A stretch of DNA of 64,000 bases from Podarcis pityusensis. Taxonomy: Eukaryota. This document shows, piece after piece, positions 16,101 through 57,926 of this stretch. The DNA is taken from the NCBI GenBank assembly GCA_964106645.2, contig OZ067040.1; one strand, 5' to 3'. Every line of letters starts with the position of its first letter. The first letter of the stretch is position 1. The notes beneath the pieces are model-generated. The model was not told the origin of the DNA, searched no databases, and saw nothing but the letters and a program-made list of their open reading frames with translations. The position numbers were made by a program, and so were the translations under genes.

Positions 16101-19100
16101 AACCAAGAAAGAATGTTAACAGTACTGGATTTGAAATAGTGTAAATGTATGTTTTCTTAGGAACACGGGTGGCGCTGTGGGTTAAACCACAGAGCCTAGG
16201 ACTTGCCGATCAGAAGGTTGACGGTTTGAATCCCCGCAATGGGGATGGCTCCTGTTGCTCGGTCCCTGCTCCTGCCAACCTAGCAGTTCAAAAGCACCTC
16301 AAAGTGCAAGTAGATAAATAGGTACCACTCCGGCGGGAAGGTAAACGGCGTTTCCATTCGCTGCTCTGGTTCGCCAGAAGCAGCTTAGTCATGCTGGCCA
16401 CATGACCCGGAAGCTGTACGCCGGCTCCCTCGGCCAATAAAGTGAGATGAGCGCCGCAACCCCAGAGTCGGTCACGACTGGACCTAATGGTCAGGTCCCC
16501 TTTACCCTTTACCTATGTTTTTCTTGTTGATTTTGTTTTGTTTTGTTTTGTTGAATTGCTTCAAGAAATTTTATGGGAAGCAATTCATAAATGAGGCAAA
16601 AATAAGATGGGCTTAATTTAAAATAGTATGTTGTGTGCATTAGCTGTTCTACTTGCATTTTGTGTCTTCCTTAAACCATATTGTAAAATGTATTTTCCAC
16701 CCACCAGCTCTGGGAAGTATATGGTGAACGAAGATGCTTAAGAACTTTCATTGGTAATATTTTTATTTTTATTTTTTAAAAATAATCAGCTTTTTAATAA
16801 ATGCTAATTGTGTCAGATTCCAGTTGTGTGCTGCCTTTAGCAATATGTCCAAATATTAATGTGTGCCTCAAGGGAATAATTAGAAGTGATGGATGCTAAG
16901 AAAATAATTATTGAGCATGGTAGTTCAAAATTCTCCCTGCGGTACAATTCATTCATGTGTGGTACATAGCTAAACACACATTTATCCCAAGTAAAGCAAT
17001 TGGGTGGTACCAGAGGGGAGGGCAAGGGAAGCTCCCACCCCAACAAATAGCTTATCCCCCCCCCCCGCCCGGATCTTCAGGGCTGCTTGTTTTTAGAATG
17101 GGGTCATTAACATGAAATATATGTATTTTTGCTCAGCATCTCTTTCCACTTACATTTTAAAAACTATGGTTCACGTGACGTAGCCTAAGGACACCCTGAT
17201 CCTAGTGAGGGGTGGTACACAGGTGGATCTGGGCCTCCCTGTGCGCAGCCACTGCTGAATTGAGAACTGCATGCGCAAAAAGGTGCTGTATCCCTAGTTT
17301 CCAGTGTTGGATTGAGAACCACAGTCACAGCACTTGAGCCCAAATGGTTTGTGCTCTTAATTAGATAGAATAGCTTGCTTTTAAGGGGAAGCAGGGGCAA
17401 TGGAGATGGGAGGACTGAATAGAGGGGGAGATAAAAAGTGCATGAGCCATATTGCAAATCACAGACACTGCACATCCAACAACTGCCCTAGTACCGAAAA
17501 GAAAAACATCTGGTACCCTTTCCTACTAATACTATATATATTTGTCCTGCAGGGCACAGTAAAGCTGTTAGAGATATATGCTTTAACAATGCTGGGACTC
17601 AGTTTCTCAGTGCTGCATATGATCGGTATCTTAAACTCTGGGACACGGAGACAGGTAGGCGAATGCTTGTTATGTTTCCTCTTCTGATACCTGTATTTTT
17701 GTGAATGACAAATACAACTGTTAAAAGTGCAACAGGGTGGCAGGAGCGCAGATCCCTCTACAGCATTATTGTCTTAGAATAGCTTTGCTTTTTGGATGCA
17801 TTTAAACCATTCTGGAAAATGGTTGGTTCAAAAGTGAATAAGGGTGTATTTATGAAATAGGATAAGGAAACATAGCTCAGTGATAGAACATCTTGACACT
17901 CTGGCATTTTCAGGGCGGGCTAGGAAACACCATTGTCTGAATCCTGGGGAGTTCACTGCCAATCAGGACCACTGTGAACAATCTTGAGTTAGATGAACCA
18001 GTGGTTTGAGGGTAACTGCCTATATTTCTGTACTCCAGAAATTACAGTTGTTGGCAAAACCAGGTTTGTTGCTTTGTATTGCATGAAATGGCCATCAATG
18101 GATTGGGTTTGGTAATCTGGATTTAAGGCAAATGGCACTCCCTTCAGAAATACAGGTTGAGGCTTATTTTATTATGTGCAAAATTGTCATCCCACCATAC
18201 AACCCAACAGCTACAACAGAAAACGAAGAAGCTGGGTATGTGAATCTCTTCCTCTTCATTGATCTGTTTCCCCTCCCACCCCCTCTCTAGGACAGTGTAT
18301 TTCAAGATTCACAAACAGGAAAGTTCCCTACTGTGTCAAATTCAATCCAGATGAAGATAAGCAAAATCTTTTTGTAGCAGGAATGTCAGATAAGAAAATT
18401 GTACAGGTAAGTTAGAAAATTCAGAGTATTTGGTAAAGATCATGCAGAAACAATTTGAAGATCAAACCAATTGACTATTTAACCAGAATTCTTTTTGTAT
18501 TGTTGCAGTAATAATAGGCTATTTCTGTTACAAAATACTTGGTTTTTTAAAATGGATCATTTTCTTCACCATTTTTAAGGAGTTGTTTGGATTTGTCTTG
18601 CAGTGGGATATTCGAAGTGGAGAAATTGTTCAGGAATATGATAGGCATTTGGGTGCTGTTAACACCATTGTTTTCGTGGATGAGAATAGAAGATTTGTGA
18701 GTACATCTGACGACAAGAGTTTAAGAGTCTGGGAATGGTAAGTAAAAAAACTGTGTCTTGACTTTTTTATTAGAGAGGAAGAAAATATAGTTTGAGTAGT
18801 GAATGTATTCTCTTTATACTTTCCCCCTCAATATAGCCATGATGCCAACTGGTTGCAGAACTTTAGACTTCTTTCCTGTGAGTCTACCCCATCCAGAATG
18901 TTTAGTAAATTCTCGACTTGGTTTTGCAATTTATGCTGTAGAATCTAAATTTTAGGACCTAGAGTCACAGGTCTCCTCCCCTTCTCTGGAATTAATGATG
19001 CTGAGATGTAGCATACAATGACATGGCCTGATTCCTAAACCTTGGTTAGCTTGCATCTCTGTACCAGCCTTGAGATAAAACTTAGGAGGGACCGCAGTTT

Positions 19101-19279
19101 ACTCCACATTTAAAGGGGATGTTGTCAAAGAAACAATGGGCAAATATGGCAAAGAAAGGAGTATGTTTTCCAGTGTTGTGTCAAATCGTGGGTTATTCAA
19201 GAAAGGATGCCAAGACACAAACATTTTACTTTCAGGTCAGAGACTGGAGTTATCAGAATGAAGACATACTTTTAGTCAG

Positions 19280-19326
<47 letters not shown>

Positions 19327-22300
19327 TGTTTTTAAATGGAACCATTGCAATAAAATTATTTGTTTGGGCTTTGGTTAGTTATTGACTCTGGGGAAAGAGC
19401 ACCACCTACTGGCTTTACCAGTACCACTTCATAATGCTTAAGGGCCATATGAACATCTACTATAACCATGAGGAATGGGTAGATGAAATACAGAAATCAC
19501 AGTAAATGCAAACGGAGAAATTCATGGAGGGACAATTACACCTAGTGTCTGTACTACCTCCATTATCCAAAGTGGTATAGCTCTAATTATCAGTTGCTGG
19601 GAATCTCAAGTGGAAAAGAGTGCTGTTGCACTGGGCTCCTGCTCTAATCTTTCTTGGGGGGCATTTTGACTTCATTTTAATGATCTCTGAAGTTGAATAA
19701 TAAACTTCAAAATAACAGAATGTTTGGTATAGTGAGTGAGAGATGGGTTGAGGGCCCTCGCATCCTGTCTACTCAGATTTGCTGTGCCCTTCAGGGTGAG
19801 GGTTACTTGTTTTCTTAAACAAAAACAAATAAATGTGTGGTTTATCTAAAATCTGTAGGATTCTTTTAATGATGTGCTGCATAAAAGCTGGACATGAAGT
19901 ACTGAAGTTATTTGCCATAACAGGCAAATAGGTTTTCCTCCCTTGCATTTTTGCTTCTTAAAGGTGTGAGTGATTCTTCTAAAAAAAGCTTTCCGGTCTT
20001 TCTGTTGGCCCAAAGCGCCAGTGGTAGAATTTGATTACTTTGAATTTATATGATCTCATGGTTATATGAACAAAATTAAGCTGCAATTAACCTTCATGAG
20101 AGCATTTACACTCCATCTAATTTGTCATTAATGTGATGTATGTAAATATTATGGAGGTTAATGTAGCTGTGTAATGAATGGTTTCTGCATTGTTAAATCT
20201 TCAGTGCCACCCACAGACGCTGATGATATTTATATCAGCCATAGCAATTCTCAAGAGTTTCCAAAGACCATTTAGTTAACCAAAACTAAACAGTTAAATG
20301 CCTTGAGCAGAATCATGAAGCAAAAGAAAATTCTAGTGGGAAATCTTTTATTCTTTGTACAGTGTAAGTGTGCTGAAGTCCTTTAACTCTCTCCTACTTG
20401 AGGCAGATCTTCCCATGTATTTATTTTCAAGTATTTATTTATTTTTTAAAAACAAGAAAATCATGTTGAATGCTGCCTTTTACTTTCTACAAATCTTAAG
20501 ATATTACTAGGAACTATTCCTAGTAATGGTGAAGCAGCCGCCAGCAGGATTGAGCCTTGCCCTCCCCCATTAGCCCACGATTCAAGCTTCCCTACCCTAG
20601 TCTAGAGCAGGGGTAGGCAACCTAAGGCCAGGGGGCCAGATGCGGCCCAATCGCCTTCTCAGTCCGGCCCCGCGGATGATCCGGGAATCAGCGTGCTTTT
20701 ACATGAGTAGAATGTGTACTTCTATTTAAAATGCATCTCTGGGTTGTTTGTGGGGCATAGGAATTCGTTCATTTTGCCCCCCAAAATATAATCCGGCCTA
20801 CCACATGGTCTGAGGGATGGTGGACCGGCCCACGTTTGAAAAAGGTTGCTGACCCCGTGGTCTAGAGCATTATTCAAAAATAAAGAACTAGAGAGATCTG
20901 CAACAAAGTGCTGCTGTGCATACCTAGGAGTGTTCCTTTTCAGGGCTCCAGCTAGCATAGAATCAGGAGTCTTGTGACACAGTGTGGGTTTGTGAATGAT
21001 AGGTAAATAGACTCCTCCCCAACTCTTCTCTTTCCAGCCCTCCTAAAAACCACCTCCACAGTGCGCATAATGCCAAAGGGCTCAGATTTAAAGCTGGCTG
21101 CCTGGCCCAAACCTGAGTCCACTTTGTTGTTTTACACAGGGAGGGGAGCTCTGGAGAATGAGAGGAAAATGCTGCTGCCCCACACCAGCTGTCATTTATG
21201 ACATCTGGTGTAGGGCAGGTGAGTGTGGCTTGGCCAAATGGCAGGCCTAATTAGGCCTGTGGGCGAGGTATCTCCCACTGCTGCCCTACCCCATCCAATG
21301 CACTATAAACTGTTAGAAGCTCAAGCCAGCCCATTCCTTCCTCCTCCATTGTTCTTTGGTTTATTTCCAGCTGATACCCTCAACCTTTCGGGGCTCAACT
21401 GCTGTTTTGAGGCTAGGGATTTTTCATGAGCAGGTGGTAACATTTTGCTCTAACTGGCAAACTACTGTATGACAGAATGCAGAAACCCCACAACATTGTC
21501 CAGGGCAGGGGGCTCATTTCACTTCAAAATGGTTAGGCATTAGACCACCCACTCTCTGCATTGAAGGAGATCCTGATTCCTAAATTTGGAACACAGGGAG
21601 AAAGAAAGAAAGTGTATTACACATGGCGTTGTTAGACACTGCAGAATTCAATAGCCAAGTAAACACATTTAGACTGCAGACCTCTAGGCCCCTCTCATCT
21701 CTTAATTTTGTTTACTAGGTGTATTTTTGTAGTATTTCATCCATATATTTTGTCTTCTTCCATAGGGACATACCAGTAGATTTCAAATACATAGCAGAAC
21801 CCAGTATGCACTCAATGCCAGCAGTGACTTTGTCTCCAAATGGTAAGGCAATGTATCTTCTTAGGCCTCTCATAGAATAATTTATTGCTTTAGAATTTAG
21901 CTCTTGAGGCTCCATATTTATGGCAGAATACAAATCCATGTTAAGTCCTATTACAACCAAAATAATTAATAATTCCATGTCTCAGATTGTGTGTCTTTGT
22001 AGAATGCAAAATTGGGGCTTTATTTTTTTAAATATACTATGGATATCAGATGTAGAAATCTAAGTGCGTGAATTTATTTTAAGAATGACATTTAACATTC
22101 ATGTTTTTTACTCTTAACAGGGAAGTGGCTGGCTTGTCAATCGATGGACAACCAGATTTTGATTTTTGGAGCTCAAAACAGATTCAGGCTAAATAAAAAG
22201 AAAATATTCAAGGGCCATATGGTGGCTGGGTATGCTTGCCAAGTAGATTTTTCACCTGACATGAGGTATGTTTCATTATAGTTCATCTGGCTATTATGGG

Positions 22301-23098
22301 ATATCATTCCCCATTTTGATTTTCAGACTTTTTCCCCATGGTCTGATTTTGGACTCTAAAGTGATTTAAAAGATGTTTTTAAACTGTCAAAGGAGTCCTC
22401 ATATGTGTATAGTCTGTAACAATGATTCTGGATTAGGGAGGAGGATGAGTGTCCCGGTTCCTCCATCCAGTAGTCAAGGCTGCACATGTGGTGCCCAATA
22501 CTAGCAGTGCTGAGCCTATGTTTTGGTACCATTCGTTTTTGACAGAATCTTGGGGGAGGGGAGGAATTGGGGGTTGTCTTCCCCTTCCTTGTCATATGAT
22601 GGGGCAGCATGAGGAGAAATTGGTTTAACTATTTTAACCCTTTTGAGCAGCTGATTTGCATGGTGATACTGACCACAGCGGCAACCGGTTGGGCAACTGA
22701 TGCACACAGCATCTTGTAAGCAGCCCACTGCTGGGCAGGTAACTTTTGAGGCCATTGTGATTAGTGTAATTCATTGCAAAAACCCTGCAGTAAAAAGTAA
22801 GCATGGAAAGCAATTACTATTTCATCTGCTTTCTATGTTAAACCGTATTTTGGTGTTTTGACATAACCCTTCAGAATTTGATTTCAATGGATTGAAGCAA
22901 TTTTTAATTTTTCTTTGAAGCTATGTTATATCAGGTGATGCAGATGGAAAACTGAACATCTGGGACTGGAAGACAACAAAACTATACAGTCGATTGAAAG
23001 CCCATGACAAAGTCTGTATAGGTGCAGTATGGCACCCACATGAGACATCCAAGGTAATCACGTGTGGATGGGATGGTCTTATTAAGCTGTGGGACTGA
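1085..23098 (+). CDS. CDC40: CDC40/PRP17 pre-mRNA processing factor 17, spliced CDS, exons 2-15 (5' partial)
   Basis: 14 AG/GT-bounded exons (87,130,84,140,97,140,75,46,102,116,134,77,145,178 nt) join in frame from [11 protein letters not shown]... to ...[13 protein letters not shown]; C-terminal WD40 repeats; matches the vertebrate PRP17 sequence as recalled. Confidence 0.98.
2080..2384. mobile_element. Tc1/mariner-type MITE (C[C/T]GTATTTTT-ended family)
   Basis: TIR CTGTATTTTTCACCCTATAGGACGCAC / GTGCGCCCTATAGGGCGAAAAATACAG, TA TSD, internal palindrome. Confidence 0.88.
3432..3568. mobile_element. Degenerate hAT-like palindromic MITE, same family as 25690-25825
   Basis: ACAACTCCCATCA...TGATGGGAGTTGT arms with CAGCCTTCTCCAACC / GGTTGGGGAAGACTG ends. 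Confidence 0.75.
3812..3941 (+). CDS. CDC40: CDC40 exon 3 ([43 protein letters not shown])
   Basis: atgcag / gtaagg; peptide visible in ORF 3734..3958. Confidence 0.96.
5500..6203 (+). mobile_element. Old tRNA-derived squamate SINE (Squam3-like), split by an L2 fragment
   Basis: 5' part 5500-5637 (tgcatgcagaatgtcccaggtacagttcccagcat...gaaaccctg); 3' part ggtataaggcagcctccgatgttc resumes at ~6175. Confidence 0.55.
5638..6170 (-). mobile_element. L2 LINE 3' fragment
   Basis: Minus strand reads [16 protein letters not shown], like the L2 RT C-terminal motif; AT-rich tail at ~5640. Confidence 0.7.
9392..9475 (+). CDS. CDC40: CDC40 exon 4 ([28 protein letters not shown])
   Basis: ccacag / gtaaa; phase 1-1. 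Confidence 0.95.
10082..10221 (+). CDS. CDC40: CDC40 exon 5 ([47 protein letters not shown])
   Basis: ctacag / gtgagc. Confidence 0.95.
11335..11431 (+). CDS. CDC40: CDC40 exon 6 ([32 protein letters not shown])
   Basis: acttag / gtaagt. Confidence 0.95.
12636..12775 (+). CDS. CDC40: CDC40 exon 7 ([47 protein letters not shown])
   Basis: ttgcag / gtaaga. Confidence 0.96.
13927..14105 (-). mobile_element. Bov-B (RTE) LINE 3' end fragment
   Basis: (GTT)n tail followed by tagtcgtgtccgactcctcgtgaccccatggac, characteristic of the Bov-B 3' terminus. Confidence 0.85.
14575..14649 (+). CDS. CDC40: CDC40 exon 8 ([25 protein letters not shown])
   Basis: tataag / gtgagt; peptide in ORF 14485..14823. 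Confidence 0.95.
16160..16513 (+). mobile_element. Sauria SINE, full length
   Basis: ggtggcgctgtgggttaaaccac tRNA-like head, B-box-like ggtttgaatccc, (CCTTTA)n tail, imperfect TATGTTTTCTT TSD. Confidence 0.92.
16708..16753 (+). CDS. CDC40: CDC40 exon 9 ([15 protein letters not shown])
   Basis: caccag / gtaata. Confidence 0.94.
17553..17654 (+). CDS. CDC40: CDC40 exon 10 ([34 protein letters not shown])
   Basis: ctgcag / gtaggc; GH...WD repeat. Confidence 0.96.
17865..18030 (+). mobile_element. Degenerate Squam3-like SINE
   Basis: tagctcagtg A-box head; body similar to the copies at 5500 and 33180. Confidence 0.55.
18291..18406 (+). CDS. CDC40: CDC40 exon 11 ([39 protein letters not shown])
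   Basis: ctctag / gtaagt. Confidence 0.96.
18604..18737 (+). CDS. CDC40: CDC40 exon 12 ([44 protein letters not shown])
   Basis: ttgcag / gtaagt. Confidence 0.96.
19280..19327. repeat. (CTTT)n microsatellite
   Basis: ~12 tandem CTTT units. Confidence 0.95.
20608..20859. mobile_element. hAT non-autonomous element
   Basis: CAGGGGTAGGCAACC...GGTTGCTGACCCC ends; exact 8-bp TSD GTCTAGAG. Confidence 0.9.
21766..21842 (+). CDS. CDC40: CDC40 exon 13 ([26 protein letters not shown])
   Basis: ccatag / gtaagg. Confidence 0.96.
22121..22265 (+). CDS. CDC40: CDC40 exon 14 ([48 protein letters not shown])
   Basis: taacag / gtatgt. Confidence 0.96.
22921..23098 (+). CDS. CDC40: CDC40 exon 15, terminal coding part ([18 protein letters not shown]...GLIKLWD*)
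   Basis: ttgaag acceptor; TGA stop at 23096-23098. Confidence 0.96.
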
Positions 23099-24610
23099 AG
23101 GCCATACTGGAGAACTCTAAACTTCTCATCACTTGGTGAACACCTGAGATTTTGGAACACCTATTCTGCAACAAAGACATTAGAATATAAAGATGGGTTG
23201 CCTCAGGTATTTCAGTATTACAGTGCACATATACCATATGGGGAATTCAGAAGATTTCATCTGAAATGTTTTCAATCTCAAACTATTATAAGCTGAAAGT
23301 GACCAAATGAAGTGGTCTAAATGGAATATCCTTTGTAAGATATTTTAAAATTAAATTAAACTGAGGAGATTTGTGTCTAGCTTTGTGTTCATGAAGCTGA
23401 AGTATACACTTCATAAGCTTCACTCTATTCTCGAAAGTGCACAATTTGGGAGAAAAAATGTTTTCATTTCAGCATTGTAAGATGATGCACCTGTTTATAA
23501 ATACTGTTTGGCAGTACTCTCAAATTTCCAAATGTGTGTGTACAGTATAATAGAAGTTGTTAGAATTGTTTTTGTATTTTAACAGCAGTTGTTGGTCATG
23601 TTGAAATACACAAAGATTTTATATGTGCAACACGGTTGTTGTTTCTTTGTGAGGGCAATCCCCTCAAACCCAACAGCCCGGCTTGAAAATATGAAGGAAA
23701 GCCTAGTGCAGAGACCCAGATAGGCAGAGGATGTCTATCTGTTGCTATGTTTAGCTCCAAGATGGGTTCCATCAAGTCCTGGATGTTTCTCTTCACCCTT
23801 ATCCATTTTGTGGAGCAGATGGATATAGCTAATGGGTTAGATCAGAAAAATGCTTACGAAAGGTGATGAGCATGAGGTACATTTAATAGCTCCTCCCACT
23901 ACCAAAAGGCCTTTCCTGGATGTTAGGGCATGCTGCTGAGTGTGGTGGGCTGTAGCACATGGGGGCTAAAGCAGAAGTCACCAAAAATTGGGTGGGGGCA
24001 CCTTCTTTTTACAGGAGCCCAATATTCAGCAATCCACATCCTTCCTGTCAGCCCCCAACACCACAACCCATTCCATTCACCGAGGGACAGGCTGTTTGTG
24101 GTGAGATGGGATAGGAAATACATTTTATGCTCCCTCACCTCCAGGTATTTTTCTCAATCCCATTATATTTGCAGATGCATGGATTTGGATACATGCTAAG
24201 AAACTCTTCATTTTTATCATGACTCCTTTTTTATAATTATTATTGACAAGTCAGGTTTCTATTCTTACTCAAATATTTTCTTTTTATAATGAAAAAAAAT
24301 CCAAAGAATATTATGTATATATGTATATAAGACAGTTATATACATATATAACTGATGAGTAATTCATCAAATGCTGTTTTAGCATAGGCCCCATTCAGCC
24401 AGTGGAGCTTGTGCAATTAGTGAATTACTGCCTTTGTGGAGATGCTTCCGAGAGGTATAACTGAAAGCACATTGCAGCTTCATTGCCATTTGACCACCTA
24501 TGTCTTGTAAATGGGCACTTTAATATCTATTTTTATTTCATAGAATTATGTGTTTTGTGCTAAACTACTGTACATATGTCTCAATCCTCCTTTTTACAGA
24601 TCTTATTTTT

Positions 24611-25994: not shown

Positions 25995-26309
25995 CTATTT
26001 CCATCTTGTATTCACCCAGCTCAGTGTATAACAACTACTTGCGTTGAAGGCTTCCCTTTTTAGGAACATCTGTGGTTTTGATAAGTCTTTGTAAGTGTGA
26101 AAAAGCCTGAAGTCTTTCAATTCTAGCTCTTTGAGGAGACTGTACCAGTACCGAACCACAGTGCTGTCATTGCCGCTGACCTCAAATCCCGGCCAATGAA
26201 CATGGATTTCCAAGACCAGTTGCCCTATGTGTTCCACAACGTCCTCTAGGATCAGGTTTTCCAAAATTTTCCACTCTGCACTTTCCATATCTGCTTTGAG
26301 GATATCGAT
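25995..26309 (-). CDS. METTL24: METTL24 terminal coding exon ([19 protein letters not shown]...[14 protein letters not shown])
   Basis: Minus-strand ttacag acceptor at 26310-26311; 315 nt to TAG; ORF 25995..26357. Confidence 0.95.
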
Positions 26310-29300
26310 CTGTAACAGTATGACAAGAAAGCATGAAAAAGAGGCTCCTTGTTTCATAAATCAATTGTCATATGAATCAACTATATATTTAATATATCAA
26401 GCCTCATCAGGGAGGCCGTTTCCATGTGATTATTAGAGGTTAGAATGGTAGATTATTTACCATAGAAAAGAGATTGCAAAGGAGGTATAAAAAGAACTAA
26501 TTATTAGAAAACAGAGACATGCATTATGGTGAGATCACAACTGACTTCCACATGTGCAAATAAGACCTATGCTTCCTTTCTTCATTGCAGCCCCCCCCCC
26601 CCCCCGGGCAATCTGCTTTGGAGTTTGGTGAGCCACTGGAGGAGATGGAAGGGGCTGCAGGGAACAGAAGAAGCAGCCTCATCATATCTGTTAGCATATT
26701 GTCGGGTCCTGTGCATAGTATTCTATGCACTACTAATAAATTCATGTTCCAGGTGTGGATCCTTATGTAACTGAACAGTTCTTTGTGCGGATACTGGTTG
26801 TATCTTAACAGCCACTGGAACATCCATACTCCCTTTCATATAACACAATAATGATAGATAACCTGATAAAAATTATCATGCAGAAGACTTCCCAAATAAA
26901 AGACCACACACACACTCCTACAACACAGAGAGATGCACCAGCCAAGAGTTTGTCAAGAGCGATTGCTCAGCTGTCCTGACTACCCTTTGACTGACTTGGC
27001 TGAACGAAGTGCTATCTGTCGTTTCCATGGGCACTCGATTCATTCCTAGATACAAATTTCTTCCTGATTGCTTCACAGTTTCAACAGTCACAGATAACTT
27101 GGCTTTTAGGCATCCTTGCTGGGGAGCAAGTCCCATTGAACTAAATGTGAGTTATGGTACTTCTAAGTAGATGTCTGTAAGATTGTGCCATTAGCATCTA
27201 TGGAACATTTTAAGAAAAAGGAAATCCTTTCTCTTGTCATAGTCTCTCCTGGTGAAAGGAAAAGTCACTATCAGGAACCAAAATAAAAGACTTTATTAAT
27301 GTGGAACTTGAGAAGCAAATGTCACAATAGCATCCACATTTCCCATGAAAATTATTTCAAGTATGGTGGCTGGTGTTCCTTCCTTAGCCTCTGCACTGCC
27401 TATGCCCCCAATAGATCTAAAGGCAATTACAACAAATGACAATCATTAGGAGTAGGAGCCAGCCAAAGTTCAGCACTTTCAAATTCCACTATTTCAGCAG
27501 CAGAGTCAAGTATGGGTTGAACCTTTGGCTTCAGGTGGAACATGACTATGGAAAACAAGAGACATCAGTGGAAGTGGTAAGGAAATGATTGTGGCTCATG
27601 GCTGTGAGCACCAAACTCCAGGATAATGAGTTGCTCTTAAATATCCCAGTGTGGTACATTTTACTATATAGTCCCTACATCATGCAAGGCTATTTAAAGG
27701 AACTAAGCTTATAGATTGCTTTTTTAAACAGGACTAGAGCATTCCCTTGAGACTGGATGTCAAACATCTGAAAGGCACTCATCTCTTCTAAAGAAGAAGT
27801 ACAAACATGGAATGCTATGCAGATGTTTGCTTAAGTATATTAATTACTGCAGGACTGCTACTACTGCCAAAGAAAAATCCCTATTAATGCTTTTGCAGAA
27901 GAGGATTCATAGCAATTTCCTTACTGTGCGTGAAAGAGAACCTAGACTACTTAGTATTCACGTCAGACATTTGTTGTCTCCACCCAGATCCACAGCTGTC
28001 AGTTTATGTCTTCCAAAAGGAGAAAAGAAAAAGTCCATCTTGGAAGATGGAGAAAAGCATGCACTCGTCACCAGGCTCCATCTGGTGATAATTCAGTTGT
28101 GCCATCTCAGTTTTGCTATGTGCGCCATCTGCATGATTTTGCTTCATGCCCTGTTTAACTCTTCAATACCTATTAACTGCCTGCAATAATTAAATTAGGG
28201 TCAGAGCAGACAGTGCAACCTCTTTGTGGGGGCTGCTTGACAGAGCAAATGTGCTCACCCAGTGAACTACTTTTGTGTAGTGACCTACGGAGTGGATGGA
28301 TTTTCACCTGGGCAATCCTGGTGGTTGCTCTTTTTTCTATCTGTGTGGTGGGATCCCATACAGAAAATAATTCAATACATACAGTTAGGCAGCAAGCTCC
28401 TACTTAGGGCAATTGAAAATGACATCCACAAGACATCTGTTTGGTGCATTAGGTCTTAAATCTTTTTTTGTATTGGGACAAGTAACAAGAGGTTCAGATA
28501 TCGTACATCCCATATTTAATACGGTACAGGGGGAAACTGTCCTCCCCAAACAAAAAGAGAATTTAGACTACTTGGGAAATATGCTCATATTTGTACACAG
28601 GTAGGATTCATTCACACAATCCATCTGCTGCAGTCAAAAGCAATAGATGGTTCACGAAACAGAGGAAGCCTATTTGTGCAGGAATGTTTGCACATAGGTC
28701 ATTCACAATAAGCAGCCTGATAGGGAGTGGCAGGGGGAAGCCCCGCTGGGCAAGGCCCAAGACTCCCTGCCATGATCCACCACATGTAGAATTTACACAC
28801 ACCATTGAATTAGCCCTACAATTAGAATTCCAAGAGGGATTTCATCAGTTTCAGTTCAGTGGAGAAACAGCTGCATCTCATGCTAACAGCTGTTAGCCAG
28901 TATGATACAGGTCGAGAGAGAGGGTGGGTGGAAATGTATAAATGGTGAATATGCATTGCATTTAGTAAAATGTTAAAAGTATCATAAGATACACTTGAAA
29001 AATTAGTTTAGTTCCTGCAGTTGTGCAGAAATATTAAGCCACAGGCAACACATTTAACCATTAAAGTTCTTGTGCCTTCTGTAAACACCCAGCTCACTGG
29101 TTGCTATGTTTCCATGTGACATATAAGGTAACCAGGTATATCTGAATAGGAGTATCTTAAGATCTATTCGGAGAAAAATATGCTCCTCCATCAATTTTGT
29201 GGGTATTTTAAAAGAAACATCTCTCCGCCCCCCCGCCCACTGTTTCCAGTGGGAGGGGGAAAACAAGGAAGTGGTTTAAAGGAGCTCCTTAAGTAGACCA

Positions 29301-32300
29301 CATGTCATCCTCGTTTAGGTTTAGGGAATCCCTGGTGGCTGAGACAGCTTTGCACCCTTCAGAACCAAGCTGATTCCGAGTCCTTTCTCAAAACTGCCCC
29401 AACGCACACCGTTTCTGGCTCTTCTGATGTCAGAGCTCCAGTGTCGGTAGAGCCAAGATGCTGGAGGCTGCAGTGGCAGAAGGGAGGAGGGATCCAACAC
29501 CAGATCTCTCTGGCACTGCATGCTTGCATATGGTTTTAAATAAGAAGAAAGAGACATCTCCCTTACTGAAATAGTTACGTAGAAGAGGAGGGAATTTCAA
29601 CGGCTGCTACTTGTCTCACAAGCTGCGATTTCCAGGATTTTCTCTCTTGCACAACTATTGAAAGCATAGAGATCCTCTACTCCTTTGCAGTTGGTCCAGG
29701 GACCCTAAAGGAGGGGTAAATAACCAGTGGCTCTCCATATGTTGCTAGACTACAGCTCAAATCCTCCTTGACCATTGGCCATACTGGGGGAAACATATGA
29801 AAGTTCAACAACACCTGGAAGGCCACAGGTCTCCTCTGCTTTAGAGAAAAGCCAATGTACAGCATGGTAAAAAAATTAAGGGGGTTTCCAGTTTGCATAA
29901 CTATTGTAACTAGATATCTGACTGCCTTCTCATACAAGCATTTCCCTTTTCTTACACACCTGCAAATGCAACCTTTTCTTTTTTACATAAATAAGAATAA
30001 CTTGGCTTTTCCCCCTTTCCATTCCATCAGTGACAGGATGTTTTTTGGGGAAATGTTTCTGTCACATACCAGACCTTCAGGTTTGCACAATAAAAGTGGA
30101 TTAAGCTGCTCTTTCACCCTAGCACAACAAATCCACTTTTAAAAAATAAACAAACTTGTGTGGTTCAGAAAATGACAAGGAAATGCACTGAGGGTTCATC
30201 CAGACATCCTTTTCATGGTGCATTCATGGTGCTTTGTGCTCATGATGGGATCTACGCGCTCAGTGGTTTTTGGTTTTTTTTAAAAAAGAGGTGCTGGCAT
30301 TCATATATTGATAGTGTCAGGGGTTCAGGGACAGAGGCACAGGGTAGGCAGGAGATGGAGAGCGATGGGGATGAGTCCCAGGACAGCGAGGAAGAGGATG
30401 ACAATGACTCAAGAGATTCCATGAGTCTTTCCAGCGAATCAGAGGATTCCCAGAAGGGGGCGCCGGTGGTCAAGGCCAGGGGAGCCCCAGGGGGAACGTG
30501 TCAGGAGCAGGGGGCCAGCGGGGGATCCCAAAGTGGCAGCTGGGCGTCAGGACCAGCCTCCCTGCCAGAGTGCAGCGAAGGGGGTGGAGGTTCCAGTGTA
30601 TCAGGGGAAGCAGCTCCGGCAGCAGAGAAGGGAGGGAGGTCGGAGCAAGCCACCCTCCCGGAAGGGGAGGGGAGTAGTGAAGGGAGTAGTGTAGCTGTCA
30701 AAAGGAAGGTTAGAGGTTGGGCGCGCGCGCCAAGTTCAAATGTGGAGGCGCGCGGAAGTACAGGGAGCCCGGAGGAGGGGCCAGGTCCCAAAGCCCGCAG
30801 GAGGGGGCAAGAGCAATCTGGGGATTCCGCGTCAGAGGAATCCAGGAGGGGCGAAACCCCAGCGGGCAGGAAGACCCTGCGGAAAAGGAAAGAGAGAAAG
30901 AGGTGGAGCAGCGCAAGCCTCTTAAACTGGTGCAGGGGAGGGACTGACTCAGAGGGGACTTCAGCGGTCTAAGCGTAACAGACGTAGGGCTACGCGCCTC
31001 GGATGTGAAGCAAACAATGAACTGCAATAAACACTTTTGTATATAAGAAGAGATTGGCGTTGGTCTTTTGTGAGCTGAGACTTGAGGCAGCCCTGACAGA
31101 TAGGATTGCTCTGCCAGAATAAAACAGCTGCCATTGGCAGCAAAAGAACAGGTGCTGGTATTCCGCATAGGGAGTTACTGTCACAAAAATGCCCTGACAT
31201 GCAGCAATGTGTGATCCCATTTTCAATACTGTTTGCTCCTACAGAAGTTCTGGGATGGACATACTGCTTCATTTCCAATTGCTGCCTCTCCTGAAACTCT
31301 TCATGCTACAACAACAATAATAATAATTTATTATTTATACCCCACCCATCTGGCTGGGTTTCCCCAGCCACTCTGCGCAGCTTCCAACAAAAGATTAAAA
31401 ATACATTAAAACATCAGTCATTAAAAACTTCCCTAAACAGGGAATGTTCCAGGATTGTGTGTTACTGTTTTTGTCCAGCTTTTGCTGTGTCTCCAGATGA
31501 CAATAATTGCAGTAACAATGGGGAAGCATCACCGAACAACACATAAAGCAGAATCATGTGTGGACGGTCTATTGTTGCATCAACAACATTGTGAACAACA
31601 CACACACACACACACACACCTGTCGAGTGGCCTGAAGAGGGTGAGATGAATAAATAACTAATGGGAAGCTGTGAAAACACCCTGTAAGCAAATCGGGAAG
31701 AATGCTCATTGACTAAATCATAACAAATGCTTAATAAAGACCAGATATAATCTAATCTTGATGTAAGGATAGTGCACACAAGTCCAGATGAATACCCAGT
31801 ATATGGGTCATCTGGAGGGGCTTTTAGGTTGTGGTATTCTGGCTTTGATGCCTCCCTTCACCTCATGTACTCTCAAGTTAATGCCCAAAAGAGTTGACAG
31901 CCTTGCATTCAGGAGGACAAGCAGCAGGTATTTAGCTCATAACCTACAACATTCACAAAACTGAACTGAAATGTGACTGTTATGAACAGCATCTCCAGGA
32001 CAAAGTGAGCTGCCGGAAGAAGAAAAGCATAAGCTGTGCCTCTGTATCTGTTGCATACGGGAAAGCTCACAAAAGAAAGATGACAGTATTAAGAGATAGC
32101 AGGTAGCCAATTCAAAGTTTGACACTACCTGCACTGCTCACACAAAAATGTTCAGCATGCTTAGAAAAAGAAAAAAGATTGACAGAAAAGCACAGCATCT
32201 AAAATGCTCCAGCATCTAAAACCCAAAACAATGCCTGCCATGAAGGGCAGATTTCTACCCTCAGCTCTAAAAAAAAGGTGTGAGTAAGTAAAATAAAGAC

Positions 32301-32822: not shown

Positions 32823-35800
32823 AGCACAGCTGTCTGCTCACTATAGGAAGAAGTCCAAGTGGGCAATGCTGCCATTATTGCTCATGTGCCCCTAAGCAAA
32901 ACAGGTGGTCATGCGACCATGCACACATTAAAACTACATTTTCCCAGACATTAATAGAATACTATAAGGCGGCTTCATGGTGTGCCAAAGATTGATTTTC
33001 CCTCCTTATTTCCAGATTCATTTTACAGTGTGGAACTGTAGGAAATTTCCAGGGAAGGAGCATAGCACATACTTTGCCTACTTAGTTCAATCCCTGATTC
33101 CATGGCATATTTAGCTAAAAGCATCACTTTGCTGCCTGAGATCCTGGAAAGCTGCCGTCAGTCAAGAGACATCAAGTCACAGGAAACTGCTTTATACAAT
33201 ATCAGACTTTGGTCCACCTAGCTCAGTTTTATCTACACTGGCAGTGGCTCTCCAGAGTTTCAGGTAGGAGTCTCTCCCAGTCTTGTCTGGAGATGCCAAG
33301 CACAGAATGTGGGACTTTCTGCATACATAGCAGATCCCCTGCCACTGAATTATGGCCCCTGCCCTAGACAATTTGGGGATGAATTGACAAAGAACCTGGC
33401 TTGGTGTAATGCACCTTCCTTTGTTCTCACAATGCACACTCCCTACTCCTGCAATTTGCTTGAACTGTTTTTAATTTCTGAATTTTAAATTGTCCTGAGA
33501 TCTGCTGCTGAAGGGCATGCAATAAACTTAGCAATAACACTGCTGCTGCTGATATTGTTGCACACCTAACCTTCATTATTTCAGGCTCAGTCATAAAAAT
33601 GGAGATGCCAAAGGAGTGTGCAGGTTCTGTGTCTTAAGCATTCTACCTACGCGCTGCTTATCACCAGGACACCATGAGCACCTGAAAAACATTTTATGTT
33701 CCTGCTGCAAATTACCCTCAGGAGAGACAAAAGAATGTTGCTTTAATGATTCACCATGCATTTGCCAGCATTATGTTCCGTGTATAATCTGTTTCCCTGG
33801 TGCTACATTGCCATTCTTCCACACGCTGATGCTGAGTATGGGAGACTGGGGAAAGAGGAGACAGATAAATTTCAAGTATACTTATGTTTACATGCAATTT
33901 CTTCAGCAACTGGAATGAAAAGTAATAAAGACTTCTAATTTCTAAACCCGCAGGCCCATAGCGCCTGCTCTACTCACAGCCGTGTGGAGCTGGTGCACTT
34001 AGCTGCTACAACAGCTACAAGGACGGATGAAATCCAGAGCTCATCAGAGAGCCTTGAGATAGCACTGACAATCCATTTCCGGTTTCTTTTATATGACCAA
34101 AAAACATACCGGGAGTGCACTTGTAGAAGTACTGAAAGGAATGTAACATGCCAACTGGACTCATTGTTGTGGCACAGTCCCAGCCTATGTCTTAAATTTT
34201 TTTTTTAAAGCTTCACAGTTCCCTCAGCTTCCATTCCCTAGAGGCAGGCAGACCGTGGAAGCTCCTGCCAAGTCTCAGTGCACAAGCTGTGCAAAGCTTG
34301 CTGTCTGGCAGGGGAGTTGGGCAACTCTGACAGTCATTAACGCTGTGATAGCCGCATCCCAAAAGGTGGTAACAGTACCTTTCCTGGCTATGTGCCACTC
34401 ATCAGACTGGCTTGCTCAGAGCCACCTGTCAATCAGAGCCCACCCGGACAAGGAACCCTTCACAATGGAATTTGGCCAATAAATTCACCGTCCATCCAAT
34501 CAACCTGGTGCTGCATTACTCAGGGGCCTATGTTTGTGAGTAACTACTTAGGATAGTTGCTTAGAAACTTAGATAGATACTTAGGATAGTAGCTCGGTCC
34601 CAGCTCCAGCCAACCTAGCAGTTCAAAAGCACGTCCAAGTGCAAGTAGGTACCGCTCCTGCGGGAAGGTAAACAGCATTTCGGTGCACTGCTCTGGTTTC
34701 ACCACAAGCAGCTTAGTCATGCTGGCCACATGACCTGGAAAAACTGTCTGCGGACAAATGTCGGCTCCCTCAGCCGGTAAAGCAAGATGAGACTTGCAAC
34801 CCCAGAGTCGTCCGTGACTGGACTTAACTGTCAGGGGTCCTTTACCTTTACCTTTTTACTTAGGATAGAGTAGACTTGGTATCAGGGCCAGATGAAGACA
34901 TGCTGAGACTATAACCCTAGTCAACTTTAAGAGATCCCACAGCACATGAAACACCTTTAAATGAAAGTACCTTCTGAATTCTTACTTAGCATATATGAAA
35001 ACTTTTTATGCTCAGGAACATAAAATCAGTTACACACATAGTTTAGCACTTAACGAAGCAGAAGAGGCATGCACCCTGTGTGTTATGCACATATCATAAA
35101 ATTTAGAAAGAATGAAAAAAGCATTTAGAGCCCCCTCTTAATCTGAGGCCTCAAGCTGTAGTTTACTTAGCATGAAATGTGTGAAGTGCTTTTTACTTCC
35201 TTTCATGCAGTATTCTGCCTTTCCCCTTTTTGTTCCCTTAAACCCTTTTCTCTTAAAACTGGTTGTAGGGGATTACTCATGTGTTGTTGTGACTGCTCAC
35301 AAGATAGTCTTCTCTCCAGGGTGCCTAGATCTCTGGGTCCATGCTGTTTTCATGTCTAGGGAGCACTGCGGGAAAGCTAGCTGCCCTCCTTCGTAGAGGG
35401 AGAGAGGCGTGGGCTGGATGCTCCCACATCTCCCTAACCAGGATGAATTGCTCACAGCCTTGAGCACTGCCCTTCTCTCAAAGTCAGAGGAAAAGGAAGG
35501 GCTGGTGGCAGCAGACCAAATGGTTAGAGACAGGAGCTGTTCCTGTTCCCAGGAGAGAGGGAGGGAATGAACTCTCAGGCTTTCGCTACAATAGTCAGGG
35601 CCAAGGGGGCCTTAATATCTGCAACAACAAGGTTAATGGGATTTCTGATATATCTGGCATTGACCTGAGTGCCATTTAAAGTTCCCTACAGAGAACAATC
35701 AGTTGAGAGTAAGTACCTGAGAGAAGCTATTTGCCAGCGTTATCACAGCATGTGATAAAAGCCACTAGAGAAAGCAAGATATCCCAATTTACCACACATC

Positions 35801-38800: not shown

Positions 38801-41800
38801 CTTCTTTTGTTATACCAGGGATGGTACTCAGGCATCATTGAGGCTAACCATCCTCCCACCAATTCACAACAGCAATTCAAATATGTGCAATAATTGTGTT
38901 TGATTGTTCAGCATTATAACTATAACTACTGTATTTAATTCTTTCCCCATACTCCCTTTAGCACGCAAAGAGAAGTTCATGGCAGCTGTTACCAGGATTA
39001 TCATCTTTGGGAGGAGAGGGTGCTAGAAAATTGATATAGTCTCTTTATTTATTTACAGCTGAACAGAATACAGCAGGAATTGGACAGAAGCAAGAATGCA
39101 CAGGCAGAGAATACTAGTAACACGGCAGTATTGAGCCGTGCCCTAAAGCTGCCATCTTTCAAAAAGCCTACTGAGTCAGTCAACACCAAGCAGCTTCTTT
39201 CACTTCTTCTTGCCCATTTTTTTTTACAGACAAATCCCAGCTTCCTAATGACCTGCAGAAAGAGCAGCCCTAGCTGGATACAACATCTGGAGTCCCATGG
39301 TAGTTAAGAGCATGAGCCACAAAGTAACCAATTCAAATCTCTGCTCAAACCACAAAGCCTTTAAGAAGCCTTAGGCAAGTTAATATGTCCACTGCTGCCG
39401 AGCCACTCCAGGTATTTCTGGATGATACTGATGATCAATATCTGCTTCAATCTGCTTTTTTACCATGATTTTTTGGCACTGAAAGGGCCTTGGTCATCCT
39501 GGTTAATGATCCATGGCAGGAGGTGAGCAGGAAGGGATCAGATTCTTCATCTAGCTACCACTCACACCATTTCCTCATTTGGGGGGGGGGGCAACCTCAC
39601 CACCACTGCTCATTTTCCAGAAATAGTTTACTCCTAGAGCTCAGGATTTATCATCCCCAGGCAGATACTTTATGCCCCTATCCAGGAGGTCCCACCTCAA
39701 ACCAGGTTATGATGCCTCTTGCAAAACACACATGAATTGCTTTGGTTGCTTACAAAATGCTTATTTTCCTATGACGGGGAAGTATCTTACATCCCATGGT
39801 GCCTTTGCAAAAAGAACAACCTAAGGACTGCCTGCTGTAACCTATCAAAGACTTGAGCCAGATGCAGAAGAAAGAACACAAGGAAGAATCACAACAGTAC
39901 CACAGGAACATCACACCAAAAGCCTTCATTGCTAGGACATGTTACAGGGGAGTAACAGATACCCGATTCAGTTACTACTTCCCAGCATCTCCCTTCCACT
40001 CAGTTTAACCTCTTCATTTAAATTAACACCTCTCCGCTGAAATTCATGCCTAGGCTCTCTGGAGATTCATAGCCTCTAACTTTCTGCCAGCCTTCACCAT
40101 TATTCAGAAGATAATCACAGATAAAAGCAAGCTCCTAAAAAAATAATCCAGATTTGAATTCGAAAGCTGTTTTCACAAGTGAGGCATACCTAAGTGCTCC
40201 CACTTTTCCAGCTCTGCAAATGGAATGAAGAAAGAAAAAGAGACATCCATTAGACTGTTCACTAGATCTTAAAACAGCCATTTTCCTTTCTCACATTAGC
40301 AACATGTACAAACAACACATCCCAGACCGCGGCATTTTCAGCATCGCTTGTGAGAACACCCAAGGGGTCTGGGTTGAACTGTAAAATAATAGTCATGCAT
40401 GATAATTAAAATATGCTGCTATTTTTAGATAGCTTCCGTTTTAACGCTAAAGGAGGAGCAAAATGTTAAATGGAAACTATTTGTTCTGAACTCTTTCTCT
40501 TCCCAAGCCCTTCTGCAATTTTCCTGTTTCCTTCTGCCTGATTTGACAAGTTAACTGCCTTGCTGTTCTCACTAGCCCAGGGGTAGGCAACCTAAGGCCC
40601 GGGGGATGGATACGGCCCAATCGCCTTCTCAATCCGGCCTGTGGACAGTCCGGGAATCAGTGTGTTTTTACATGAGTAGAATGTGTGCTTTTATTTAAAA
40701 TGCATCTTTGGGTTATTTGTGGGGCATTTGTTCGTTTTTTATTTTTTTCAAAATATAGTCCAGCCCACCACATGGACTGAGGGACGGTGGACCGGCTCAT
40801 GGCTGAAGAAGGTTGCTGACCCCTGCACTAGCCTTCCTGATTCTATCCCTTCCTGCTTGACAACTTCCCTACCATTATCCTTCCTCTCAGAGGCAGATTT
40901 AGGACAGTGTGACCAGATCCTCCAAACTGGGCACTGAGCCTCGGGGCACTGCAGGGCGTTGCAACTGTGACCTAGTGAATTAAGTAGAACAGAAGGTTGA
41001 GAGGCAGGGGGACACAAATTCTGGCTTTGCACAGGGCACTGCTGAAATTTCAAAGACCGAAGTCTGTCACTACTCCTTACCACCACATAATTATTTTCAG
41101 GCTGCTCCCCTACCACACTCCAATATACCACCAATCTCCCCATTCAGTCATCCTTGCCACGTCCTTCTCTTCAACATCTGCCTGGTTCCATTTTACTCTT
41201 AGCCTCCAAGCTCCTGAAACTTGCAGCTTCTGCCCATCACCTCAGCCTTCTCTCCCCTGACTTCTCTACTGGCCTCCTCTAGCTTCTAGGTTCTGCCCAT
41301 AGTGCTCTAAAATCATTGCACTGATTTTGCACTTCTCTGAATTTTGTGATACCGTTCTTGGCTATAAAAAAGTACCAAAATGTATTTTAAGATTAAAAAG
41401 AGGCCAAGAAATGTGTATGTTGAGATAAAATATTTAAGTATATACAGCGGTACCTCGGGTTACATACGCTTCAGGTTACAGACTCCGCTAACCCAGAAAT
41501 AGTACCTCGGGTTAAGAACTTTGCTTCAGGATGAGAACAGAAACTGCGCGGCAGCAGCGGGAGGCCCCATTAGCTACAGTGGTACCTCAGGTTAAGAACA
41601 GTTTCAGGTTAAGAACGGACCTCCAGAACGAATTAAGTACTTAACCCGAGGTACCACTGTATATACTTAGTAGTGCAATTAAGAACAAATTTCCTTGCAG
41701 GTTTAAAAAAATTCACAAGGTGATGACTGAACAGACTTGGGAATTGTCACTTGTGAAATTGACATGGACCGAAATTGCCTGACCCACCCATCCCTGGAAA

Positions 41801-44800: not shown

Positions 44801-47800
44801 ACTGTCTAAATCAGGGGCAAAAAAACCAAAAAACCCCTCAGGATCAAGGGCTGAATATAGCCACTGCTCTCTCTTTCTGGCCAGAGAGAATGTACCCAGG
44901 CTACATCTCCCACCAGCCCTGCTGTGTTCACCTTGCCTAAGATGGAGAGAAGTGTGTGTGTGTTTAGAAACCTCTGACCTTTGCATGGCTGGAATTTAGT
45001 CTACCGTACAGAGGTAAGAACTACTGTCACACATCTGTTGCTTGGCCCCCTTTTGCCTCTGGCCCTGTTCACCACTGGCATGAGGAAGCCCCACAAGGCT
45101 GCCTAGAGGAAATGTTGCCCCTAGCTTGAAAAAGCTCTCCAAGCCTGGTCTAAATGCTAGAAGTAACTAACATGCACAATTTTTTTTTCATCTGCACAAT
45201 TATTTCAATAGTTTGCATAGCTTCCACCAGAAATGGCAGAAAAATTTCATGACACAGACAGTTTACCACTTGTTTATATCTCTGCTGCTATGTGGTTTGT
45301 ACTTGGCCAGCTGTTGCTCAGTTCTAATTTATTGCTATTATGGTCCAGCCATAAGGTCTCCCGTGAGTTGAGAAAAGGGACACTGCCAGGATACTTTGGG
45401 ATTGAGAGGGTGACCTAGTTCTTTTCTCGAGGGCCGAAACAGATGATTGGAGTGCTATTTTCAAAGGCAGCAGACTCCAGTCTCCAATTCAATGCAATGA
45501 ACTGTGACATAACCTGGGCCAGCCCATGACGTTTTGCAGCCTGTGGTGAAGCAGCAAATAGCACCTTTCTCCCAACCAAGGCCATTTGTTTATTTGGAGA
45601 CCTGAGGCAGAAAATCCCACAAGCACCTCTCCTCTTTTCCTGGCAGTAAAATATTGTCATGGATTGGTTAGACACAGAGGACTGGTGGGAGGAACCAGCT
45701 GGGGAGCCACCAAAGGAAGAAGGCTCAGAGCCCAGAGAGTGGTGGTGGGATGTCGATGAGTGGTCAGAGGGAGAAGACTGGGAAGAGGTGGTGTTGAAAG
45801 CTGAAGGGGTATCAGGGCTTAATGAGCTGGGAGAGTCTGTGGCAGAGAAGTTCAGAATCAGAAGATGAAGCTAGCAAGTGGGAGGAGGGAGGTCAAGAGG
45901 CAGGGATGAGTCAAGCTGGTGAAGTTACGGGTGTCTCACCCTCTGCGACAAGCTTCTCTCCCCCATCTCCCAGAACCAGGAGATGCATGAAAAGGGCATG
46001 AAATATACTCAGAGTCACAAAGTGATTTCATGCTCTTTATTCAGCTCATAGTGGTGAGGAGGAAGAATGAAAGTCCCCTCAAGGTATCTGCTTATATACA
46101 TTATTTACACAATGGGCTGCACACGATTGGCTAATTCCGGAATTCTCCTGTAGGCCAATCAGGTTGTGGATTCACTTCTATCTGCAGCATGATTGGGTGG
46201 TTCCTGCCGACCAATCATACTGCTGCATTGTTCTAGGACCAATCAGACTGCTGCATTCTGAATCCTATTGTTCTAGGACCAATCAGACTGCTGCATTTTG
46301 GATCCTATTGTTCTAGGACCAATCAGACTGCTGCAGTTTGGATCCTATTCAACTCAGTACATAACAGGGCAGATGAGACTGGCTGCACACAAGCGCAGTC
46401 TCAGATTGCTTGGGGAAAGCCCTGGAGAGAAGGAGACTTAGACCGCAGTGGGGAGGCGGGGACCTTAATCTTGGCAACTGATTTCATGGGGTAAGACCCA
46501 CAGGGAATGAGCTGCTGTACTCATGAAGCCTGAGACTCAGCCCAGTCTGTGGAGATCATGTTTTCGCTAATAAAGAGTTAACTACAACTTTGAACTGTGT
46601 AATTTACTGACCGGCACGCTCTGTAACAAATATATACTAAAAATTAAGTAAATTAACAATCTGCTCCACTTTCGTAACACTCAAAACCAACTGCCTGAGG
46701 TGGCTGCCCCACTTTGCCTAATGACAGGGTCGGCTCTGCATCATTAGTACGTTTCTTCAAGTTTGGAATGTAGAGCAAGGAGAAATGGCAGCTGTTTAAT
46801 CTCTGGAGATGTGGCAGCACAGAAGGGAAGCATAATAATGGTGAATATAGAGATAAAATATTTCTATTTGAGGAAGGAGGTGCAAACGTCTTCAAAACAG
46901 AATATTCATATTTGAGCTGTCACCTTAGATTTATGCAATAAAATAAGAAGAGGTAAAAATAATGATGTTCCTACTCCAAACCAAAGGGTATGTGCTTTAG
47001 GTTGCAAATATGTACACACCTGGAAGTAAGCCCCACTGGATTTGCTTTTGAGTAGAAATGTATGGAATTGTGCTGTTTAAGATTTGCATGAACTGCCTGG
47101 AAATAAAAAAGTGGACAGGAAAAACTCCTTGTCCAGGAAGGCACTGAGCTGTTAATGCATTCTACCACAGAGTTAAGTTCTTCAGCAATGGCGTTGGATA
47201 TTTAAAAATACACCAAAAGTTAGTTTTTTGCTTACTAAGCCTTAAATCTCGGCATGCTTTTCCAAACAGAGCTGACATCTGTTAGCAGATTTGTCACACA
47301 AGCCACCTTTACTTAAGAAGCCAGCACCAATTATCCTTAAAATAGCCACTGTGACTCAAAGACTGCTTTCCTTTCTTTTAACTGGGAACCTAAGGGTGAA
47401 ATCTAATGTCAGGCAAGCAGGCATCCTCTCACACAGTGATGCTTCTCTTTCTTCTTCTCCTTGTAGCCCCCACATGCCCTGAAAAATCTGCTTGGGGTGG
47501 GGGTGGGGTGTGCAGGTTGCAGAGTGGGAGATGAGAAATGCCTTTGCCTACAAACCTGATTTCAACCCAGTTTTAAATATTAAGACTTTGTAAAATTTAA
47601 CATATTAAAAAAGGCTTTATGGAGATAACAAATAACTAAAGATATATGGGTGATTTTAGAAACCCAGTGCAATGCTGAACAGGTTTTCTGACTGTCAGAA
47701 GTTGAAGATCCATATCTGAACATTCCTTTTATTTTGTCATGGTTATTTTTCTCCATCTCCTGGTGCTTCTACTCTCATAGGTACCAGAAGGAATGCCTAA

Positions 47801-57771: not shown

Positions 57772-57926
57772 CTTCCCAAAGCAAACAGAAGAGGTATTGT
57801 TACTTCAAATAAAAACAAAATCTGAAGGATCGCTACTATTAACATCTTAGCGCACCTACCCCTGAAGGACTTAAGGTAGAAAACATTAATTCTTGGTAGA
57901 TGTGCGGAAGCACTAGAAAGAGCTTA

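Follow-up and report, generated by a model that had tools for sequence, protein, structure and literature searches.

An open reading frame in a solo LTR of Podarcis pityusensis is very probably the 3' end of a Ty3/Gypsy chromovirus pol gene

Coding sequence in the U3 region of the long terminal repeat (LTR) is represented in env-bearing retroviruses by MMTV sag and lentiviral nef, which are separate genes with their own mRNAs and are read from the 3' LTR copy. In plant CRM group A and in the Beta vulgaris elements Bingo1-4 and 7, it is Pol that reaches into the 3' LTR, according to two reports (PMC3059260, PMC3605345). The chromoviruses of the Tf1/Sushi group are described in two further accounts (PMC6317226, PMC4600332) as having the domain order PR-RT-RH-IN, with a chromodomain after the integrase and a primer-binding site (PBS) that is complementary to a site within the LTR and not to a tRNA. 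A search of the literature at the level of listings and abstracts gave no report of a pol-into-LTR layout in reptile chromoviruses and none of TND-interacting motifs in retrotransposons.

The window considered here is a stretch of 64,000 nucleotides of Podarcis pityusensis DNA (contig OZ067040.1), in which a first-pass annotation had delimited a 784-bp solo-LTR-like element with an exact GATAG target-site duplication (TSD) and had proposed that a frame running from an ATG (GAGATGG, 30355) to TAA might encode an undescribed accessory protein of a squamate LTR retrotransposon. It had named as checks a collection of genomic copies, the assignment of a superfamily through full-length elements, a comparison with composition-matched shuffles, and, across subfamilies, the retention of the frame and its ATG, with dN/dS below 1 and indels in multiples of 3. 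The element (784 bp, 30315-31098) starts with TGTCAGGG and ends with CCCTGACA; its coordinates, its ends, and the GATAG on each side were confirmed by re-reading the sequence, as was the ATG-started frame, which has 205 codons, a stop at 30970-30972, and an AATAAA at 31026-31031 (Table 1). The open frame extends beyond these 205 codons, beginning at base 2 of the LTR and comprising 218 codons in total. The left host flank is also in frame, presumably by chance, and a 266-aa ATG-started frame from 30172 enters the LTR (window 30094-30972). The 205-aa product consists of 34% Gly/Ser, 17% Asp/Glu, and 14% Lys/Arg, and has no match in Pfam or the ESM Atlas. We consider it very probable that the frame is not a separate gene but the last part of a Ty3/Gypsy chromovirus pol gene, maintained by selection, and this reading replaces that of an accessory gene. 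The part of the earlier proposal that stands is that the frame is selected coding sequence of a squamate LTR retrotransposon; that it most likely specifies a stand-alone product of ATG 30355 does not, the frame being in phase with an upstream chromodomain and integrase.

Table 1. Features of the solo LTR and its borders (positions in the window)
Feature	Position	Strand	Evidence
Left target-site duplication, GATAG	30310..30314	+	Sequence
Right target-site duplication, GATAG	31099..31103	+	Sequence
Solo LTR of family A, a young family of Ty3/Gypsy chromoviruses	30315..31098	+	Genome copies, full elements of ~6.54 kb
LTR-encoded last 218 pol codons (integrase C-terminal tail)	30316..30972	+	Frame continuity, dN/dS 0.41, third-position excess
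ATG, likely an internal Met	30355..30357	+	One variant in 82 family-A copies; Thr/Leu in 5 of 6 related sequences
Predicted U3, protein-coding throughout	30315..30950	+	Inferred from self-priming site
Basic cluster followed by hydrophobic-Leu-x-Trp; predicted nuclear localisation signal	30868..30930	+	Alignment, composition
TTAAA, possible TATA-like element 25-29 nt before predicted start	30922..30926	+	Sequence
Predicted start of the transcript and self-primer; pairs over 11 nt with the primer-binding site after 5' LTRs	30951..30961	+	Complementarity, fold
Predicted R-U5, containing the pol stop (30970-30972) and AATAAA (31026-31031)	30951..31098	+	Self-priming site

On either side of the LTR is a methyltransferase-like exon of the minus strand, one at ~57.7 kb and one at ~26.2 kb (57519-57923 and 26064-26318; Pfam matches below the cut-off), which we take to belong to METTL24, and plus-strand WD40 exons, presumably of CDC40, occupy 18600-23100 and end at 23.1 kb. 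Because the LTR is antisense to the exons that flank it, host read-through would not be sense, and the window copy is therefore likely to be silent as a protein gene. The window also contains an inverted repeat pair with internal 40-bp tandem units (45984-46366 and 50307-50619), four copies of a SINE-like family (16160-16509, 34589-34849, 49640-49839, and 58113-58282), and a two-copy dispersed element (20602-20856 and 40572-40823).

A genome search with the LTR gave 1,716 candidates, and each of the 40 that were scored is full length and at least 99% identical. The 30 LTR copies that were fetched comprise 13 solo LTRs together with 8 from the 5' and 9 from the 3' end of elements, and the 205-codon frame is intact in 27; the window copy is itself solo, as had been proposed, and the same 784-bp LTR occurs elsewhere either solo or paired in full elements. 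Five full elements of this family (family A) are ~6.54 kb long and have TG...CA LTR pairs, 5-bp TSDs, a PBS, and a purine tract preceding the 3' LTR. The family appears to be very young because the LTR pairs differ at only 1-5 of 784 bases. In one full copy, Pfam identifies Retrotrans_gag with a zinc knuckle, protease, reverse transcriptase (RT), RNase H, integrase, SH3_Tf2-1, and a weak Chromo match, and neither Pfam on this copy nor the lists of open reading frames gave an env; this gag, PR-RT-RNase H-integrase, and no env are as in a Ty3/Gypsy LTR retrotransposon, and the chromodomain C-terminal to the integrase is as in a chromovirus. The gag and pol frames overlap around GGGAAAC. Among named proteins, the closest come from Podarcis muralis and P. 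lilfordi, and the nearest named matches outside lizards are catfish gag-pol proteins with a chromodomain. The subfamily of the chromodomain-to-LTR protein P0001 was not found as such in the genome, where the best match is 72%. A 38-Mb contig carries a large share of the chromovirus matches, as a heterochromatic W chromosome would.

In the 3' LTRs, the frame runs upstream over the polypurine tract, with D-V-R at the junction, into ~140 acidic residues and the chromodomain, the distance from the start of the chromodomain to the stop in the LTR being 413 aa. The spacing between the chromodomain start and the LTR Met is 624 nt, which preserves the frame, in 21 of the 29 copies in which it could be measured; the sample consisted of 30 copies retrieved through a query located in the tail, outside a variable run of G residues considered below. 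Among 101 copies scored with P0001, a sampling that favours intact tails, the frame is open back into the integrase in 34 and forms a single frame of at least 1,500 aa in 20. A search with P0003 identified a sister family, B, whose LTR measures 762 bp and whose single pol frame of 1,558 aa ends in the 3' LTR; two database proteins of P. muralis, P0275 and P0276, are likewise products of one pol frame with this ending. At loci identified with an SH3 profile, 16 of 30 read in one frame beyond the D-V-R junction, the others breaking earlier or belonging elsewhere, and the more distant families found in this way encode 79-109 aa within the LTR. Since the frame is continuous with the chromodomain and integrase, its product is the C terminus of Pol/integrase, and it overlaps all of the predicted U3.

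It is very unlikely that translation starts at ATG 30355 and yields an independent accessory protein comparable to MMTV Sag or to the part of Nef encoded in U3. The frame is under selection, and the ATG is in a strong context and is present in 81 of 82 family-A LTRs and in the related sequence P0278, but its retention within family A says little because the copies are 99% alike. In the column of this Met, P0278 is the only one of six related sequences to have Met, family B, P0001, P0275, P0276, and P0277 having Thr or Leu. The ATG therefore probably specifies an internal Met, and the expectation that it would be kept across subfamilies was not borne out. The antisense orientation of the LTR to the two flanking methyltransferase-like exons also argues against such a protein.

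The sequence after the 5' LTRs pairs with 11 nt at LTR position 637 (30951-30961) in 8 of 9 copies and with 10 nt, at position 638, in the ninth; among host flanks used as a control, none of 74 reaches 10 nt at the same offsets (0-3), and one has 10 nt at offset 4 that match elsewhere in the LTR. Families B, S1, and S2 retain the pairing through other nucleotides, and in all four families (A, B, S1, and S2) the pol stop is 17-22 nt downstream of the primer-complementary site. The predicted leader folds with the primer pairing closed (z −1.94; 7 of 200 shuffles are as good). From these features we infer that the genomic RNA starts ~19 nt before the pol stop. With such a start, the frame would lie in U3, which enters the genomic RNA only at its 3' end; transcripts from an LTR's own promoter would then begin too far downstream to include that LTR's copy of the frame, and a solo LTR should not express it. 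It should be noted that the predicted start is downstream of ATG 30355, which also counts against an accessory protein initiated there. No TTAAA-like element was seen at the same place in family S2. A TATATAA at 31040 was considered as a promoter element and rejected, as it is downstream of both AATAAA and the self-priming site.

The substitution patterns indicate that the LTR-encoded part of the frame is under purifying selection. Between families A and B, its dN/dS is 0.41 (bootstrap CI 0.27-0.58; dS 0.90), as estimated from one copy of each by simple counting, with transitions weighted 3 and no CpG term. The value is also 0.41 for the tail upstream of the LTR, and this equality on the two sides of the LTR border is a further point against a separate accessory gene; it is 0.04-0.14 in RT, RNase H, integrase, the SH3-like domain, and the chromodomain. 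The middle 80 codons of the LTR part have a dN/dS of 0.66 (CI 0.37-1.11), which is not distinguishable from neutral. In a plain nucleotide alignment of A and B, 94 of 209 third positions differ as compared with 113 of 418 first and second positions (p = 6e-6), corresponding to mismatch rates of 27%, 27%, and 45% by codon position, and no codon-position pattern is present downstream of the stop. The same periodicity is seen between families S1 and S1b (17%, 17%, and 31%; p = 0.004). Among 82 distinct family-A LTRs, the changes present in at least 3 copies, after removal of one site private to the window, comprise 33 synonymous, 26 replacement, and no stop changes (27% synonymous expected; p = 3e-6), a count that may be inflated by several shared synonymous changes at CpG sites; 39 of 104 private changes are synonymous (p = 0.014). 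The shared indels within the frame are of 3 nt, and the sole shared 1-nt deletion is after the stop; six 1-nt indels within the frame are each confined to a single copy.

It had been cautioned that a T-poor strand lowers the frequency of stop codons by itself. In mono-, di-, and trinucleotide shuffles of three regions, a stop-free frame of at least 205 codons arises in 0.2-3.6% of shuffles, and an ATG-started frame of this length in 0-0.4%; the T-poor composition contributes but is insufficient to explain the frame. An alternative is that the open frame results only from the G/A-rich, T-poor composition of the LTR and encodes no functional protein, pol merely meeting no stop before R. This proposal could draw on the upper limit of 3.6%, on the range in length of the LTR-encoded tail across families (79 to 218 aa), and on the lack of a predicted fold for the tail (mean pLDDT 44.7). 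It does not account for the finding, in two independent pairs of families, of dN/dS below 1 and of more differences at third positions, for shared indels that stay in frame and the lack of shared stops, or for a stop that keeps its position 17-22 nt past the predicted start site in four families; it is already largely refuted, and we regard it as extremely unlikely.

A complication is that, in family A, a run of G residues between the SH3-like domain and the chromodomain differs in length among copies (L031:5343-5350; L038-L067 and L098-L127). At this run, 67 of the 101 scored copies are out of frame, as are 22 of 29 in a sample drawn without regard to the run, and the three reading phases are represented in the ratio 34:40:27 among the 101. 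With so many out of frame, a large number of copies would need recoding to produce the fused tail. These observations raise the possibility that a short integrase, extending to the SH3-like domain, and a long form with the chromodomain and the LTR-encoded tail arise through slippage or frameshifting at the run or are encoded by different copies. Just 34 of the 101 scored copies are in frame, an out-of-frame class is the largest (14 of 29) among copies obtained with a query that avoids the run, only 4 of 57 copies differ in length at the 7-G run of the polypurine tract, and both lengths of the G-run are present in short-read contigs from other individuals, which give no frequencies because they often end inside the run. 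However, the run is absent and the frame intact in family B, in S1-S4, and in the P. muralis database proteins, two copies in which the run is interrupted are in frame, and the 34:40:27 split is as would come from a hypermutable or mis-assembled homopolymer. The existence of two forms is therefore considered unlikely, and homopolymer slippage, in replication or in assembly, is the simpler reading. Copies broken at the run could in principle use ATG 30355, a point on the side of the accessory protein. Two side observations concern family B: an element of this family is inserted in frame in the RT of a family-A element, creating by chance a chimeric frame of 615 aa, with a family-A tail between duplicated B LTRs (L147 / L178), and many family-B LTRs are near contig ends, often beside a ~510-bp repeat (e.g. 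L128-L138, L179), a placement that may reflect subtelomeric targeting or a bias from the query flank.

The chromodomain of family A is a weak match to the Pfam profile (E = 0.0042; 17.4 bits, below the cut-off of 25.1), and that of family S1, when aligned, scores 39 bits, above the cut-off, and matches HP1/CBX structures. The dN/dS of the chromodomain is 0.04 between A and B; despite this, the two families have Arg or Lys where S1-S4 and HP1 have the cage Trp (L031:5372-5545). As judged from sequence, the chromodomain of families A and B is conserved and probably does not read methyl-lysine. Eight aligned tails share, outside the chromodomain, invariant residues F62, F67, T70, F76, G78, and F79, the D-V-R junction, and a Trp that follows a basic run close to the C terminus, and the basic run with its Trp ends all eight at the same position. 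Directly behind the chromodomain (L031:5534-5647), all eight have a first motif composed of two upstream Phe, an 8-residue linker, and FxGF; a second FxGF is present in S1-S4 and S1b. Shuffled tails equal the FxGF count in 0.03-3.8% of trials, and no FxGF was found behind the domain in 130 other chromodomain matches (median remainder 73 aa), chosen from 148 by a pattern that excludes the members of this clade.

This layout resembles that of the TND-interacting motif, described as a hydrophobic helix, an acidic or Ser/Thr linker of 8-16 residues, and an FxGF that is required for LEDGF/HRP2 (PMC9987994), and the consensus for LEDGF binding is given as D/ExExFxGF (PMC8022399). The tail resembles the TND-interacting and LEDGF IBD-binding motifs of MLL1, JPO2, PogZ, and IWS1 in its arrangement of a putative Phe-containing helix, a linker, and FxGF. 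The strict consensus is matched in S1, S2, S3, and S4 and partly in S1b, whereas families A and B have Ser/Thr in place of its Asp/Glu. HIV integrase, for its part, binds LEDGF via a folded surface and not via a linear motif (PMC6382798). Searches of the PDB with the motif, as a profile and as a single sequence, gave chance matches only and did not recover known LEDGF-motif fusions that are present in the database searched. A predicted complex of the family-A FxGF peptide with Podarcis LEDGF 402-490 scored 0.01 with a tool that is unbenchmarked on peptides and was run with alignments unused, and weighs neither for nor against binding; the host LEDGF exon is 99% identical to that of P. muralis. 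AlphaFold2 modelling of the chromodomain and tail from the eight aligned rows gave a mean pLDDT of 44.7 and, within this low-confidence model, a helix (394-402) at the terminal basic/Trp stretch; as the chromodomain itself is unfolded in the model, this is weak evidence of disorder in the tail. By BLASTP, the LTR-encoded part has no similarity to family S1, and since it also lacks Pfam and Atlas matches, its function is deduced from composition alone. The motif behind the chromodomain may tether integrase to a host chromatin reader. It is possible, although on balance doubtful, that the tail mimics TND-interacting motifs, docks onto LEDGF/p75 or HRP2, and steers integration to H3K36-methylated gene bodies, with an end encoded in U3 that functions in nuclear import.

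In the mechanism that we propose, Pol would be produced when ribosomes shift by −1 at GGGAAAC, where gag and pol overlap, a reading in keeping with established knowledge of such sites. Integrase, the SH3-like domain, the chromodomain, and the acidic tail would be translated in one frame that continues through the polypurine tract into the 3' LTR, and the only translation product of U3 would probably be the C-terminal tail of integrase, which is predicted to be disordered. The tail would remain on integrase, its terminal basic cluster serving in nuclear import and the chromodomain and the FxGF motif just upstream of the LTR in chromatin tethering, and the genomic RNA would prime its own reverse transcription as that of Tf1 does. 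The solo LTR of the window would be a leftover of recombination that retains tail sequence without a promoter or the remainder of the gene; the FxGF motif, being upstream of the LTR, is absent from it.

What appeared to be an orphan LTR gene is thus very probably part of a clade-wide architecture in which U3 is dual-use DNA. The length of the LTR (370-784 bp) follows that of the integrase tail, and R-U5 is constant at 126-149 nt. For annotators, the consequence is that thousands of solo LTRs in such genomes will resemble genes of 200 codons. If the FxGF motif does bind LEDGF or HRP2, linear-motif mimicry, the copying of a docking motif of the host, would have brought a retrotransposon to the tether used by HIV and other lentiviruses.

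The frame of family A differs from MMTV sag and lentiviral nef in being fused to pol, in an element that has no env, and in lacking a conserved start codon. With the Tf1/Sushi group (Tf1, Tj1, Sushi-ichi of the vertebrate V-clade, and Amn), family A shares the domain order, the place of the chromodomain, and a PBS complementary to the LTR, from which self-priming is predicted, and the termini of its LTR agree with the att motifs of Sushi, TGTYANR / CNTNACA (PMC3601003). It differs from Tf1/Sushi in that its pol extends ~350 aa past the chromodomain, 218 of these being in the LTR, and from Sushi in that its U3 is G/A-rich, whereas that of Sushi is T-rich (PMC3601003). In plant CRM group A, the LTR encodes a targeting CR motif that replaces the chromodomain, and priming is by tRNA-Met; in family A, by contrast, a chromodomain precedes the polypurine tract, the PBS finds its complement in the LTR, and the LTR-encoded part is a low-complexity tail. 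As the features that define CRM elements are not those of family A, the resemblance between the two, by comparison of their sequence organization, is one of convergent layout and not of membership.
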